From contig OX597819.1 of the NCBI GenBank assembly GCA_951406725.2, positions 13,516,001-13,580,000 of the forward strand: a stretch of DNA of 64,000 bases, read 5' to 3'. Below are positions 9,781-52,743 of this stretch, piece after piece (position 1 is the first letter of the stretch; each line of letters opens with the position of its first letter). The position numbers were made by a program, and so were the translations under genes. This stretch comes from Octopus vulgaris (taxonomy: Eukaryota). Under the pieces are notes generated by a model. It had not been told where the DNA came from, ran no database searches, and worked only from the letters and a program-made list of their open reading frames with translations.

Positions 9781-10365
9781 TGTTGTGCCTGGGGAGAGTC
9801 ATTTTCTTTTTGTGCCTTATAATGTAACACACTCACCAGTAAAATTTCCACTTATTTCTTATTTTTATTTTCCTAAAATTTTCGTTGCGTCTTGCAACCT
9901 TTTCAATAGTCTTGACTCTGTCCGTTATGACGGACAGTTTATAGGGTGAAGAGTACTGTCTTAGAACTTTGACACCCTCTTTTCGGCCGATAATGAAAGA
10001 CTTCAACCAGTTATAGAGATCGTCTCTTACCCCCATTGCAGAGAGTTTCACCATAAGTCTTTTGTGTGGCACAGAATTAAAAGCCTTAGGAAAGTCCAGG
10101 TAAACAACATCCACCCAGGAGCCACCATTAGTGATGCGGGTAATGTCCTCAAGAAATTCGATGAGTTGATAACAGGAGCTGGAGTTTGGAATAAATCCAA
10201 ATTGTGGACGGCTGGATGAGGCTGCGAAACTTCCAGAAGTTCCAGAGGGTTTCTCTGACACAGGATTCAATCAGTTTGGCGATGCAGCTAGTAAGACTGA
10301 CAGGGCGATAGTTGACAGGCGATGTGCGGTCACCTTTTTTGAACAGAGGGATAACGCTGGCAGCT
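9780..10365 (-). mobile_element. CR1-clade LINE fragment, internally deleted RT
   Basis: IPLFKKGDR..NYRPVSLTS, QFGF and VDVVYLDFPKAFNSVPHKRL, then a jump to an IEKVARR (LEKVQRR-like) C-terminal motif. Confidence 0.85.
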
Positions 10366-11486: not shown

Positions 11487-11584
<98 letters not shown>

Positions 11585-11671
11585 TATATACATATATATA
11601 TACATACATATATATACATATATATATACATACACATACATATATTTACATACATATATATATATACAAAC

Positions 11672-11708
<37 letters not shown>

Positions 11709-11789
11709 TATATATATACATACATATACATATATATATATACATATATATATACATACATATACATATATATATATACATATACATAC

Positions 11790-11858
<69 letters not shown>

Positions 11859-11875
11859 CATATATATATATACAT

Positions 11876-11918
<43 letters not shown>

Positions 11919-11955
11919 GTATATATATATATATATATATATACATATATATATA
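11487..11955. repeat. (TA)n/(TACA)n compound microsatellite
   Basis: Directly visible. Confidence 0.95.
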
Positions 11956-12036
11956 CAATTGCAGCGTGGAAGGTGTTTATAAGCCATTTAAGAAACACAC
12001 AAAAGCCGTTCGATTCACTTCAACATTTAAGTTTAA

Positions 12037-12086
12037 TTTGTCAAAATATTTTCGTCGCTAAAATCCGCGACCTGTTCACTGACAAA
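12037..12086 (-). ncRNA. Predicted minimal hammerhead ribozyme, G3-C8 variant (copy 2)
   Basis: Exact reverse complement of 12336-12385. Confidence 0.7.
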
Positions 12087-12267
12087 GTCCGTGCTGCATC
12101 TAAGAATATATATATATATATACATCTTTACGGAGATGTACTCGCATAGCAAGTAATTTGATCTGAGATCGAGTGCTGAAACGAAAACAATTGCAGCGTG
12201 GGAGGTGTTTATAAGCCATTTAAGAAACACACAAAAGCGTTCGATTCACTCCAACATTTAAGTTTAA

Positions 12268-12317
12268 TTTGTCAAAATATTTTCGTCGCTAAAATCCGCG
12301 ACCTGTTCACTGACAAA
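12268..12317 (-). ncRNA. Predicted minimal hammerhead ribozyme, G3-C8 variant (copy 3)
   Basis: Exact reverse complement of 12336-12385, in tandem with copy 2 at 231-nt spacing. Confidence 0.7.
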
Positions 12318-12335
12318 GTCCGATGCAGCACGGAC

Positions 12336-12385
12336 TTTGTCAGTGAACAGGTCGCGGATTTTAGCGACGAAAATATTTTGACAAA
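12336..12385 (+). ncRNA. Predicted minimal type I hammerhead ribozyme, G3-C8 core variant
   Basis: TTTGTCA-GTGAACA-G-GTCGC-ggatttta-GCGAC-GAAA-ATAT-TT-TGACAAA: 7-bp stem I, 5-bp stem II, palindromic AUAU stem III loop. Confidence 0.7.
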
Positions 12386-12467
12386 TTAAACTTAAATGTT
12401 GGAGTGAATCGAACGGCTTTTGTGTGTTTCTTAAATGGCTTATAAACACCTCCCACGCTGCAATTGT

Positions 12468-12476
12468 ATATATACA

Positions 12477-12528
<52 letters not shown>

Positions 12529-12567
12529 TACATATATACATATAATATATATATATATATATATACA

Positions 12568-12598
<31 letters not shown>

Positions 12599-12617
12599 CA
12601 TATATACATATATATAC

Positions 12618-12695
<78 letters not shown>

Positions 12696-12999
12696 CATAT
12701 ATATACATACATATACATATATATACATACATATACATATATATACATACATACATATACATACATATATATATATATATATACATACATATACATATAT
12801 ATATATACATACATATACATATATATATATACATACATATACATATATATATACATACATATACATATATATATATACATACATATATATATACATACAT
12901 ATACATATATATACATACATATATATATATATACATATAATATATATATATATATACATAATACATAATATATATATATATATACATACATATATATAC

Positions 13000-13039
<40 letters not shown>

Positions 13040-13085
13040 ACACATACATACATATATATACATGCATATATATATATATATATAC
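12468..13085. repeat. (TA)n/(TACA)n compound microsatellite ending ~220 bp upstream of the TIMM50 ATG
   Basis: Directly visible. Confidence 0.95.
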
Positions 13086-13305: not shown

Positions 13306-13756
13306 ATGGCGGCCTTCACGAGGTACATGTGTCTTTCAAGGAGGATAAATTTATGCTATCCGATATTGACTCATCATTTTACCTCAGAATCGCGTTTGAA
13401 ATGCACAATTGTAAGAACTTTAATGTCTAGTAACGATTTGAATACACTTTGTGTCCGTCTAGAAAATGTAAAACGACTGTTAAGTACAGAAGCCGATACA
13501 CCTGAGCGTCGAAATGTCCGGAGTAAAAGCACTTCCGACCTAGGGTCTCTCACAAGCGACATCCTTAGTTCCAATATCAAAGCTGCTTCAGTTTCTTCAC
13601 CTTCCAAAGACGGTGGCACAGAACAGTCCAGTTCTTCTTCAGGATCTAAAAAGGAAAGATCTTCGAGATGGACCGGTAAAAATGCATGGAAGTTAGGTTT
13701 ACTGTTGCTCGGAGGTTGGGCTACCTTGACGACGGGCGTACTCATTAGTATTTGGG
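13306..13756 (+). CDS. TIMM50: Tim50 coding exon 1 (presequence, Ser-rich linker, transmembrane helix)
   Basis: ATG at 13306 in ACATGG context. Basic/hydroxylated N-terminus, then TM segment AWKLGLLLLGGWATLTTGVLISIWG. Donor G|GTAGGT at 13757, phase 1, joins exon 2 in frame. Confidence 0.9.
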
Positions 13757-45263: not shown

Positions 45264-47352
45264 AGACTCAGCAATAAGAGCAAGGTCGTCAGCGTAGAGG
45301 AGCTCCCAGGGACAGCCTGTCTTGAATTCCTCCGTAATTGCCTGGAGTACTATGATAAATAGGAGGGGGCTGAGTACTGAACCCTGGTGGACCCCAACCT
45401 CTACTTTGAATTCTTCTGTGTACATGTTGCCAACCCTAACCTTACTTACGGCATCTCTGTACATGGTTTGCACAGTCCTCACCAGCCATTCATCTATCCC
45501 TAGTTTCCTCATTGACCACCAGATAAGGGATCGGGGGACCCTATCAAAAGCTTTCTCCATGTCAACGAAAGCCAGGTACAGGGGCTTATCTTTGGCTAGG
45601 TATTTCTCCTGCAGCTGCCTTACCAGGAATATAGCATCAGTGGTACTTTTCCCTGGCACGAACCCAAACTGCATCTCATCTACACTAACTCTCTCTCTAA
45701 TTAGTTGGGCTATGACCCTCTCCGTAACCTTCATTACTTGATCCAACAGCTTGATACCTTTGTAATTATTTGTATCTAGGGCATCACCTTTACCTTTGTA
45801 GCAGTTGACTAGTATGCTGCTGCACCAGTCATTGGGTATGACTCCTTCGTGTATCACCTGGTTGACTATACGGGTGACTAGGTTATAGCCGACACTGCCA
45901 GATATTTTGAGCATCTCTGTAGTAATTCCTGATGGGCCTGGGGCTTTCCCTGTCTTCATGCTTCTAATTGCCTTAGCTACCATGGAACTATCAACTCGGA
46001 TAGCTGGTCCCTCTGTAGGGTCAACATTCGGCAGACTCTCTTTATCCCATTCATTTTCCTCATTCAGCAACCTTTCATAGTGGCGTCTCCAAGCTTCTCT
46101 CTTTGCATCCTCATTTAGCGCAAGTGAACCATCCTCCATGCGAACACATTTCTCTCCTACCACATCACGATTCTCTCTCACACACTGTCTTGCAACACGA
46201 AATACCTCAAGTCTTTCATCCTCACGGCGCAGGACATTGGCAAATTTTCTCTTATCTGCTTCCCCTCTGGCTAGATAGACCTGTCTCCTAGCTTCCCTTC
46301 TGGCAGTCTGATACCCTTCCCTGCTACCACCGTTCTTCCAGGCCTTCCAAGCCTGTTTCTTTTGTCTAATAGCCCTGTCAACAATATTGTTCCACCACCA
46401 CGTTATTTTGGGTCTTAAGGGGACTTTGCACCAGCCACAGATCTGGTCAGCGGCTTTCAGCAGGTTGTCCCTCAGAAACGTCCAGTTGTCTTCTACCCCA
46501 TGTGTAGCTATACCCCCTTCCACTTCGTCGAAGGCTTCAAGTAACATATCTCTAAATCTCTGTCCATTTGCAGGGTCTTTAAGCTTCCAGACCCTTCTTC
46601 TCCATGTTGGTCGTCTTCTAGTCGCCCTCTTAGTCCTGATCCTAAAGTCACTAACTACCAGTCTATGTTGTGGGGTGCATTCTTCGCCTGGGAAGGTTTT
46701 GGCATTTATAAGCAGCCATCTTTCCCTTTTTCTGGCAAGGATGTAGTCGATTTGGCTAGTATGCCGGCCCGATCAGTAGGTGACCAGGTGGCTTGTTGGT
46801 TTCCTGAAGTTAGTGTTGCAGACCATAAGACTATTCGCATCGCAGAACTCCAGCAGCCTGGTTCCCTCCTCGTTGCGGGAACCATAACCGTAGCCTCCAT
46901 GTACGCCATGGAAGCCCCCAGCATGTCGTCCAACATGCCCATTGAAATCACCAGCCACAAGGAGAAGGTCCCTGTCGTTCGTCAATGAGGTGGTCTGCAG
47001 TAGGGTGTCATAGAAACTGTCTTTCTGTCCATCGGGTAGCCCTGGCTGAGGGGCATAGGCCGATATAATGGTTGCTAATCTATTATGAAGCACTATTCTA
47101 ATCTTAAGTATTCTGTCACTTACTCTGATTACCTCAATTACTCTATCTATCCATTTCTCAGCGATAAGTATACCCACGCCACCAACCCCGTCAGTGTTCC
47201 CTGCCCAGAAAATCTTGTACCTGTGTTCCTTGCCTGTGAGGACCCTAGCAGATCCTCCTCTCCACCTTATTTCTTGCATACAACATACATCAACACGTCT
47301 CCGTTCAAGCATCTCGACTATCTCGCCAGACCTACCTTTCAGTGTGCCTACC
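45264..47352 (-). mobile_element. RTE-clade LINE, APE endonuclease + reverse transcriptase, truncated at both ends
   Basis: APE motifs (CCMQE, SAYAPQ, AGDFNGHVG, SQIDY) and RT motifs (KAPGPSG, QFGF, FVDMEKAFD, GVHQGSVLSP, YADD) in one frame, with a single TGA at 46773-46775. Confidence 0.96.
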
Positions 47353-47372
47353 TTGCAATCATACTTAGTCTT

Positions 47373-47740
47373 ACAGTTCTATATTTAAGAGATGAGGAAT
47401 TATTTACATTTGACGGATATTTGTCCTCATCTTGTTTGTAGTTGACACAACATTTCAGCTGATGTATCTCCCACGGGCATATGGCATAGTGGTTAAGAGT
47501 GCGGGCTACTAACCCCAAGATTCCGAGTTTGATTCCAGGCAGTGACCTGAATAATAATAGCAATAATAACTTTGAAAAATACCTTAGGAATGGGAACCCA
47601 GATTCGAGGTGCTCCAGCATGTCTGCGGCCTTCGGGCTAAAACATTTTTAAGGATTTAAGACACCTAATGAAGGCTGGAGAGTATATCAGCCGAAATGTT
47701 GTGTTAACAAACACAATGAAAGACAAATATCGTCAAATGT
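47373..47740 (+). mobile_element. tRNA-headed SINE-like element with hammerhead motif and inverted 3' end (family D); other copies 580-716, 7711-8134, ~28050-28128, ~39063-39459, ~52695-52835
   Basis: A box TGGCATAGTGG (47482-47492), B-box-like GAGTTTGATTCC, (AAT)n, hammerhead-like segment at ~47660-47705. 47373-47470 is an inverted copy of the element's own 3' part. Confidence 0.75.
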
Positions 47741-50424: not shown

Positions 50425-50985
50425 TGGTGAACCCTCACCTTACTGACAGCATCCCTGTACAGGACTTGCACGGCTCTTACCAGCCACTCATTTATCCCTA
50501 GTTTCTGCATTGGCCACTAGATGTGAGATCGGGGGACCCTGTCAAAGATTTCTCCAAGTCCACAAAAGCCAAGCATAGGGGTTTATCTTTGGCTAGGTAT
50601 TTCTCCTACAGTTGCCGTTCCAGGAATATAGCATCAGTGGTGCTTCTACCTGGCACAAAACTGAACAGCATCTTATCTAAGCGGACTCTCTCCCTAATTA
50701 GTTGGACTATGACCCTCTCCGTGACCTTCATCACCTGATCCAGCAGTTTGATACTCCTGTAGTTATTTCTATCTAGAGCATCACCTTTACCCTTGTAGCA
50801 GTTGACTATGGTGCTGCCACAACAGTCATTGTGTATGACTCCTTCATGAACCACCTGATTTACGATGCGGGTGACAAGACCATAACCCACACTGCCCGAT
50901 ATTTTAAGCATCTCAGCTGTGATTCCTGATGGGCTGGGTACTTTCCCTGTCTTTATATCTTTAATTGCTTTATCTACCAGGGTAT
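50425..50985 (-). mobile_element. RTE LINE RT fragment, same family, more decayed
   Basis: MLKISGSVGYGLVTRIVNQV...STTDAIF matches the 45261-46547 protein. Confidence 0.9.
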
Positions 50986-52743
50986 TTTTGTGAAATAATT
51001 AAAATAATATTTTGTCCTTGGAATAATTATTTCTGATTAGCATTTTCTTGCTCACTACATTGAATATATTAACACTCTGTGGCACTGGCACGGGTGCTCT
51101 TTACATGGCACCAGTACAATTATTAAGCTGTCAAAAAAAAAAGGAGTGGCTGTGTGGTAAGTAGCTTGCTAACCAACTACATGGTTCCGGGTTCAATCCT
51201 ACTGCGTGGCATCTTGGGCAAGTGTCTTCTGCTATAGCCCCAGGCCAACCAATGCCTTGTGAGTGGATTTGGTAGACAGAAACTGAAAGAAGCCCATCGT
51301 ATATATGCTTGACATTGGGAGATAGGCAATTGACATTGCTTCATTGGGAGATAGGCACCAAAGAAAAAAACAAACAAAATTCTTTGAAAGTGTTGCTTCA
51401 GCTTGGCAGTCAAAAAAATTATCAACTCTAAATAAAATAAAGTAGTGGCAGTCAATGCCTAGAAAGTGGTGCTCTAGCTTGGCTGTAATCCAATGATTGA
51501 AACCAGTAATGAAAGCATGTATGTGTGGAGCGGCTGTGTGGTAAGTAGCTTGCTAACCAACCACATGGTTCCGGGTTCAGTCCCACTGCGTGGCATCTTG
51601 GGCAAGTGTCTTCTGCTATAGCCCCGGACTGACCAATGCCTTGTGAGTGGATTTGGTAAACGGAAACTGAAAGAAGCCTGTTGTATATATGTATATATAT
51701 ATATGTATGTATGTGTGTGTATTTGTGTGTCTGTGTTTGTCCCCCTAGCATTGCTTGACAACCGATGCTGGTGTGTTTACGTCCCCTGTCACTTAGCGGT
51801 TTGGCCAAAGAGGCCGATAGAATAAGTACTGGGCTTACAAAAAGAATAAGTCCTGGGGTCGATTTGGTCTACTAAAGGCGGTGCTCCAGCATGGCCGCAG
51901 TCAAATGACTGAAACAAGTAAAAAAAAAAAAAAAAGCAAATTTCTGTGATGTCTGATCCTGGACAGAAAATCTAGGCTAGAAAGTTCACTTTGTGCAAGT
52001 TATCCTTCCTCTACCTGTTGCATTCAATCCATTCCATTTGATGCCGTGATAAATTACCTGCATGTAAGTTCAGCCAACTGGAACACCCCCCCCCCACTTC
52101 CCCCCACTTAGCAATGTATATCTTTAATTAATACAAACCTGTCTAATTGATGTCTGTTTTAATTCATATAAACCTGTTTAACCTATGTCTCTCTCTCTGG
52201 GGAACATATAAATTTCTCTTTCACATCCAAGGATATAAACTAGATTTTGCATCATCATTTATTTACCCCTACCACCACATCCTCTTCCCCACCACCACCA
52301 CCACCATCCGTGGTTATTGCTGTCATACAGCAACTCGTTTGGAACAGTGAAGCTTTGTGTGTAACCTTATATGGTATACACTACTTGATAGTGTGAAACC
52401 CTATCATCTCAGGTAACTAATTGGTTTTTAAACTCCATGGTTCTTGTTGCTCAGTCTTGAGTGAACAGATTTATGATTAAAGTTGTTCCAAACTTAATCA
52501 ACCTGTACTTTATTTATTTATTTATCTATTTTTATCTCAGGCTCTATTTTCCAATGTGTCTTTTTTTTTAAAGTTTTAAAAAGACAATTGGGTATGATTT
52601 CAGGGAGATTTTGCTGTTATTTCTAACAGGTCAAGCAACCACATGGAGCCTCCTTTGTTTATGTTTGTGGTGTGAATGTTTTACCTAGTGTCATATACAT
52701 TATTTACATTTGACGGATATTTGTCCTCATCTAGTTTGTTGTT

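Follow-up and report, generated by a model that had tools for sequence, protein, structure and literature searches.

Truncated ends of an autonomous Penelope-like element in Octopus vulgaris carry a predicted hammerhead ribozyme with a natural G3-C8 pair

Three short repeats in a 64,000-nt stretch of the Octopus vulgaris genome (contig OX597819.1, positions 13,516,001 to 13,580,000; hereafter the window) are the pseudo-LTR (pLTR) end of an autonomous Penelope-like element (PLE), continuous both with its 3' UTR and with its tail and ORF. We consider it probable that units of this kind are 5'-truncated ends of the element lodged in (TA)n, and that they carry a minimal hammerhead with a compensatory G3-C8 pair which is likely a weak cutter, acting as a dimer or with the aid of a protein. 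By place and fold the motif in the window is a PLE hammerhead; it fails the literal core consensus and its ribozyme activity is a prediction from sequence.

The initial annotation had reported three identical folds in a direct, direct and inverted arrangement within (TA)n, and this description holds. The 20-nt start of the fold has exactly three exact matches in the window (12067-12086 and 12298-12317 on the minus strand, 12336-12355 on the plus strand), none of 100 shuffled versions of the window yields any match, and the 50-nt hammerhead fold is the same sequence in all three copies. In the remainder of the unit, two bases distinguish copy 1 from copy 3, and copy 2 has a 1-nt deletion relative to copy 3. 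The extents of the copies were refined to 11956-12106, 12128-12322 (tail included) and 12322-12466. Copy 1 (11956..12106, minus strand; fold 12037..12086, core 12079-12073, predicted cut 3' of 12044) is a 5'-truncated pLTR stub without the tail; it carries two bases of the older subfamily type and is probably a separate insertion. A (TA)n remnant and a few bases (12107..12127) separate it from the 60-nt tail of copy 2 (12128..12187, minus strand). The start of copy 2 was moved to 12128 because these 60 nucleotides are element tail and not filler, the same stretch coming after the unit and continuing into the ORF in the tandem copies L042 and L047. The stub proper of copy 2 (12188..12322, minus strand; fold 12268..12317, core 12310-12304, predicted cut 3' of 12275) does not contain the bases at which stubs mostly begin. 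It forms the left arm of an inverted pair whose right arm is copy 3 (12322..12466, plus strand), a stub without tail that begins within the family's main 5'-end cluster; in the window this cluster position corresponds to 12101-12106 and 12322-12325. Copies 2 and 3 are the usual inverted pair, with the tail on one arm. The first ATG of the element ORF (MAYKHLPRC...) lies at 12435..12437 on the plus strand, 92 nt past G3, and reading stops after 10 codons here. On either side is (TA)n/(TACA)n microsatellite, that on the left (11490..11955) being the likely target and that on the right spanning 12467..13085. The locus itself is ordinary transposon debris, and its stub copies are probably inert.

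The fold can be followed in copy 3 (12336..12385, plus strand), where a type I topology with minimal stem III had been proposed and where each of its parts is present. A 7-bp stem I (5' strand 12336-12342, 3' strand 12379-12385) encloses the swapped core G3 U4 G5 A6 A7 C8 A9 (GTGAACA, 12343..12349, plus strand), an unpaired G (12350), stem II (12351-12355/12364-12368), GAAA (12369-12372) and loop 3 (ATAT, 12373-12376), followed by the UH site formed by U16.1 (12377) and U17 (12378), so that the predicted cut lies 3' of U12378. Stem II is closed by G10.1-C11.1, with GAAA following and a single unpaired base after A9; this base is G, which lies outside the published consensus H and is common to five relatives. 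The minimal stem III is the palindrome AAUAUU, and the hammerhead sits in the pLTR, sense to the ORF. The canonical core CUGANGA is absent, being replaced by GUGAACA in all three copies and in 5,733 genome motifs, and positions 3 and 8 are Watson-Crick paired as G-C. Stems I and II form in a 51-nt piece (z -4.26), a stability equalled by none of 200 shuffles; over the whole 141-nt unit the fold stability is not unusual (z 0.14). The expectation that standard searches would miss the motif was borne out, as none of the 74 matches to Rfam covariance models in the window at E up to 10 is a hammerhead. These matches are only miRNA-like and far under the cut-off (mir-1295, 47.9 of 100 bits), scores that arise from the inverted repeat and the (TA)n.

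In the account of Perreault et al. (2011, PMC3088659) the active hammerhead conformation includes the 3-8 pair, and the 2'-OH of residue 8 is the proposed general acid in PMC6155905. G8C is described as killing cleavage and C3G as partly rescuing it (PMC8495972), and a partial rescue by C3G/G8C is also reported for the hammerhead of a PLE, Poseidon PAc of Anolis carolinensis (Frangieh et al. 2024, PMC11167929). Minimal hammerheads are described by Cervera and de la Pena (2014, PMC4209133) as cleaving poorly even when dimeric. The window motif resembles the minimal hammerheads of metazoan PLE pLTRs characterised there in its pLTR place, sense strand, G10.1-C11.1 pair, GAAA, unpaired base between 9 and 10.1, palindromic minimal stem III and UH site; it differs from them, as that paper presents them, in its G3-C8 pair, its unpaired G against the consensus H and its 7-bp stem I, and its activity is predicted.

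The genome searched comprises 2.8 Gb in 227 contigs and gave 1,322 first-look candidates for the unit, of which 40 were scored and nearly all proved 100% identical. Among 20 loci anchored on the ORF, the whole unit lies about 1 kb past the stop in 17 and part of it in one, the others being broken. In the tandem copies L042 and L047 the unit, a 60-nt stretch and the ORF are contiguous, with the first ATG inside the unit (window position 12435). Four loci hold two units facing apart, and three of these carry RT or GIY-YIG frames reading toward the unit while all four run on into the common 3' UTR. The suspected link to Penelope is supported, the 17 anchored loci and the contiguity in L042/L047 tying an RT and GIY-YIG ORF to the unit. 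This ORF would have about 1,067 codons (70 + 997, joined from two copies) and encodes an RT with a C-terminal GIY-YIG; an open frame of 998 codons is found at L045. The GIY-YIG domain scores 25.5 bits in Pfam against a cut-off of 22.6. The RT part of the ORF has no Pfam match, a homologue matching RVT_1 weakly and under the cut-off, and a 524-aa piece of the ORF also has none; a solved-structure search with the ORF profile returned one weak RT match. The ORF contains the motifs RYVDD and GGAIG, a CX3CxxC linker (CQSNCAVC) before the GIY-YIG and CCHH-type residues, and copies of the element show partial tandems, inverted 5'-truncated copies and an optional tail. Judged by features described by Craig et al. 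(2021, PMC8557442), namely the C-terminal GIY-YIG, CCHH-type residues, CX2-5CxxC linker, partial tandems, inverted 5'-truncated copies, one-sided tail and microsatellite targets, the element would be an EN+ PLE of the Neptune/Nematis type. It departs from these elements as they are described there in its swapped hammerhead core, and its CX3CxxC linker separates it from Penelope/Poseidon, which in the same account are without one.

The ends of the copies suggest how the stubs may arise. An anchor placed downstream of the fold matches the genome 4,051 times; in the first 100 of these matches the 3' ends form two groups about 59 nt apart, 41 short and 59 long, and the sister family that we call family B has the same pair of 3' ends, located +26 and about +85 relative to its ATG. 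Frangieh et al. (PMC11167929) explain the 3'-end pattern of Poseidon PAc by two internal RT start sites, a pattern that the two octopus groups match. The likeness to PAc, as reported in that work, includes two 3' ends that define a tail inside the ORF start, AT-rich targets and a hammerhead near the ATG; the differences are the octopus tail of about 59 nt and the G3-C8 pair, which in PAc is an engineered mutant. Measured from nt 1.1, the 5' ends of the same 100 copies lie at -63..-53 in 42, at -52..-44 in 3, at -43..-39 in 12, inside the fold in 9, at -5..+3 in 4 and at +4..+31 in 12, with none exactly at nt 1.1; alignment carries the remaining 18 into the 3' UTR, a number that inspection lowers to about 14. 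The main cluster is sharp and sits 10-20 nt ahead of stem I, near -58, where the RNA most likely begins. Ten of 15 informative copies have an additional G just before this cluster; since three of the ten are from the opposite arm and two are duplicates, the G gives no more than a hint of a cap-derived base. The bases at the cluster also resemble a 3' splice site.

We picture, from these ends, an RNA that would begin near the -58 cluster, a (TA)n target that would be nicked by the GIY-YIG domain, and reverse transcription that would start at two internal sites and proceed to the RNA 5' end, so that stubs of about 145 and 200 nt would result. Such stubs would often take the form of an inverted pair with the tail on one arm, as in copies 2 and 3, through a presumed inversion mechanism. 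In the master elements selection would hold the active-site geometry, for which base 8 would need only to pair with base 3. Most templates would be copied uncut, making cleavage occasional and unnecessary for insertion.

The initial annotation had favoured a different picture, in which the repeats form a young non-autonomous unit whose tandem minus-strand copies constitute an active dimer in cis beside a TIMM50-like gene, and this we judge very unlikely. Stubs do far exceed ORF-bearing copies (1,322 against 88 first-look candidates), as a non-autonomous unit might lead one to expect. However, the unit belongs to an autonomous element, of which it is a truncated end: that element has long open frames, the unit is 100% identical to the end of its ORF-bearing copies, and internal RT initiation on the full-length RNA can make each stub. 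The word young is apt for the newest subfamily only, the core swap itself being old and kept in a relative that is 61% identical. Dimerisation in cis has in its favour the palindromic AAUAUU and, when copy 3 is left out, a fold with the hammerheads of both copies 2 and 1 formed (-64.7) that lies within 3.6 kcal/mol of the minimum (-68.3). Against it, the loop-3 pairing probability in this dimer is 0.04, and in any read-through RNA the two arms, copies 2 and 3, would fold back on each other almost perfectly over about 137 bp (-243.5 kcal/mol). Copy 2 would then be sequestered by copy 3, and a working dimer in cis is unlikely at this locus. Between copies 1 and 2, moreover, lies (TA)n, and their subfamily bases are not the same. 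As for the gene, an ATG is indeed present at 13306, 840 nt from the stubs, and two downstream exons match the NIF domain; the gene (13306-36350, plus strand) has exons near 13306, 26030, 29160 and 36240. We take it to be TIMM50-like; that name comes from its motifs rather than from a named match, and a solved-structure search with the TIMM50-like exon gave no match. Nothing observed links the stubs to this gene, and because thousands of copies sit in (TA)n their position near it needs no explanation.

Two other origins were considered and rejected. A MITE or DNA transposon does not fit the interiors between units, which consist of inverted RT-EN ORF pieces that differ in length and are neither fixed nor transposase. 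Nor are the units a non-LTR retrozyme or a repeat in their own right, given that they are identical to the ORF-bearing ends and that the direct copies are separated by tail and (TA)n. The retrozymes described in bioRxiv 10.64898/2026.07.22.740005 are likewise short hammerhead-bearing repeats related to PLE pLTRs, but are presented there as head-to-tail tandem monomers, whereas the octopus stubs occur singly or in inverted orientation, with a sequence identical to an autonomous element's end.

Returning to the truncated ends of the autonomous element, the 3-8 pair can be followed across the octopus families. A pattern that accepts either C or G at each of the two positions has 10,113 genome matches (control, 0), and 5,733 of these are G3-C8. 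G3 with a base other than C8 was counted 381 times, and C8 with a base other than G3 163 times. By-eye counts in the first 100 rows of each list lead to estimates of about 133 G3-G8 and 34 C3-C8 motifs and leave about 4,200 C3-G8; all of these counts mirror a few amplified masters rather than independent events. G3-C8 is the family state of the window family and probably arose once; C3-G8 motifs are those of other families. A search for a canonical core set in the background of the window family gave 12 genome matches, and none of the 10 examined comes from this family. In contigs from eight public runs under four organism labels the motif is covered, and any change at position 3 or 8 stays below 5%. 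Family B, the sister in a quick tree (support 100) with 55% amino acid identity, has a C3-G8 motif at the equivalent place, 135 nt before its ATG, and many open frames of 1,300 codons. Its ORF is about 240 aa longer than that of the window family, with an Asn/Gly/Ser-rich stretch (L065:2150-3100). Hammerhead position 9 is normally fixed, yet in family B it is A in older copies (CUGAUGA) and C in the youngest (CUGAUGC; L065:6224-6270), and a metagenome relative (L403:2497) with the core UUGAAAC also has A9C. The presence of A9C in the youngest form of an active family implies that core decay is tolerable in an active element. Family C is decayed and has a canonical core. Another octopus family has a canonical minimal hammerhead with a 6-bp stem II and unrelated stems (L089:289 minus, L294:763 plus).

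The age of the swap is best seen in family D. A search for this family gave 53 matches, 33 of them with C8 and its loop type, and by eye 24 of these 33 have G3. Over 90 nt lying outside the search pattern, 16 of 20 fetched candidates (four poorly aligned ones being set aside) show 61% identity to the window family and 64% identity among themselves. They align with the window family as far as the short 3' end, and no ORF was found alongside the copies fetched (L482-L508). The majority sequence has C7, another loop II, no loop 3 (mostly AAUU) and a changed outer pair in stem I, which reads GUGUCA/UGACAC against UUGUCA/UGACAA. Alignment of these copies indicates that the G3-C8 swap is old, having outlasted changes in most of the fold's variable parts, and its retention in family D, together with C3-G8 or U3-A8 in relatives, points to selection on the pair. 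As to covariation of the stems, suggested earlier as a check on the fold, stem II is nearly invariant among octopus families (4 of 5 pairs), and stem I aligns poorly, with 59% of cells paired on an unadjusted alignment.

Beyond the octopus, 80 metagenome loci encoding related proteins were scanned with positions 3 and 8 left free. Of 17 sense-strand matches, 13 are U-A (about four lineages, one of them oversampled), three are C-G and one is a poor match without a Watson-Crick pair, so that 16 of 17 are Watson-Crick on the sense strand as against one of six on the antisense strand (five of six being other combinations). G3-C8 is absent from these 80 loci. Fourteen aligned rows divide into seven C-G, five U-A and two G-C, a count that is descriptive because the rows were picked for stem II pairing and a Watson-Crick 3-8 pair, which also makes their stem II score partly circular. 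The tree was a quick search without named reference elements, and two of its long branches are unreliable. Among the metagenome contigs we also noticed distant RT elements, a cluster of which has a conserved U3-A8 minimal hammerhead after the ORF (L443, L448-L450, L455, L459, L463, L464, L468, L477).

These comparisons bear on the possibility that the two core changes drifted by chance in one master and were spread by transposition, the pair being unselected. A single origin would suffice for all G3-C8 copies, and G3-G8 copies exist, but family D keeps G3-C8 while N7, loop II, loop 3 and stem I have changed, and 16 of the 17 sense matches in other organisms are Watson-Crick. Already weakened by these observations, drift is in our estimation very unlikely. 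The G3-G8 copies make up 35 of the first 100 rows among motifs with G3 and a base other than C8, and may be either an old intermediate allele or a product of reverse-transcription bias. A single intermediate subfamily gains no support from the 22 copies aligned, which are scattered over older backgrounds with no clear group. By-eye counts make C-to-G at position 8 roughly five times as frequent as G-to-C at position 3. None of the G3-G8 copies among the rows counted (L124-L143, L075, L105) is of the youngest loop type, and in a post hoc comparison G3-G8 is associated with the tail (16 of 22 against 13 of 42, p 0.003).

Whether selection on the pair reflects cleavage was approached through the 5' breaks at nt 1.1, for which 30 of 48 matches were fetched and the denominator is 4,347 copies. 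Twenty-two of the 30 break at this site, giving a genome-wide estimate of 35, or about 1% of some 4,300 copies. Matched controls at -2, +8 and +21 gave 9 of 30 each, with estimates of 20, 13.5 and 21 and a few misclassified. A control at +20, whose pattern is narrower and less well matched, gave 1 of 30 (estimate 2); the 16-fold excess seen against it was discarded, having fallen to about twofold against the three better-matched controls. The twofold excess is itself confounded by stem I microhomology, which explains some of it (L202), and as a sign of cleavage it lends weak support. Inverted pairs with both arms ending at the cut site are found at L207/L208, L199 and L211.

The same element and fold could also be kept for a reason other than cutting, if the G3-C8 form no longer cleaves and serves as an RNA structure (in protein binding or control of translation from the ATG) or as a promoter. 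That most copies derive from uncut RNA is consistent with this, 75 of 100 reaching the 5' strand of stem I or past it and so having been made from RNA intact across the predicted cut site. In the experiments of Frangieh et al. (PMC11167929) the PAc hammerhead needs protein in order to cleave and can be dispensed with for insertion in vitro, which its mutants leave unaffected, and no RNA-seq reads are reported to end at the site; Naiads are described as thriving without canonical hammerheads (PMC8557442), and A9C is present in the active family B. What stands against a non-cutting structure is that the 3-8 pair is that of the active conformation (PMC3088659) and is Watson-Crick in three forms across relatives, and that 5' breaks are about twofold in excess at the site, including inverted pairs that end there on both arms. 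We regard this reading as unlikely, though it deserves more weight than either the cis dimer or drift.

From the alignments presented here, the G3-C8 hammerhead, whose cleavage is predicted, is likely to be a natural form of a variant that we otherwise met in publications solely as a laboratory mutant. Our literature text search, which took in few subscription journals, found G3-C8 in the accessible texts as laboratory variants only (PMC3884650, PMC11167929), and a text search for octopus hammerheads found no natural G3-C8. Natural 3-8 pairs described in the literature that we found are C-G and U-A only: the natural covariation given in PMC4209133 is U3-A8 in Schistosoma, and the natural variants set out in PMC3088659 are U3-A8 only, a compensatory change of the same pair for which the window family has G3-C8. 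A wider reading, which we offer tentatively and hold to be somewhat short of probable, is that this octopus Penelope lineage has long used an active G3-C8 hammerhead, as relatives 61% identical would imply, and is the first natural case. The clade would then switch among C-G, U-A and G-C, possibly through the G3-G8 still seen in old copies. Such motifs would be missed by CUGANGA and Rfam searches, and some PLE groups regarded as hammerhead-free may carry swapped cores. If true, thousands of motifs per genome are invisible to these searches, which would expose a blind spot in the search descriptors. A family-wide and long-kept G-C pair would mean that natural selection has accepted a laboratory rescue mutant, and would argue for selection on the active-site geometry of PLE hammerheads despite the copying of most templates in uncut form. 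The families would also supply a matched natural series (G-C, C-G, C-G with A9C, and U-A) for asking what hammerheads do in PLEs.

The window contains traces of other retroelements. By inspection, a LINE-like element on the minus strand at 45264-47378 has an AP-endonuclease frame and a 503-aa RT-side frame, and smaller RT fragments lie near 9836-10270 and 50609-50998 on the minus strand.
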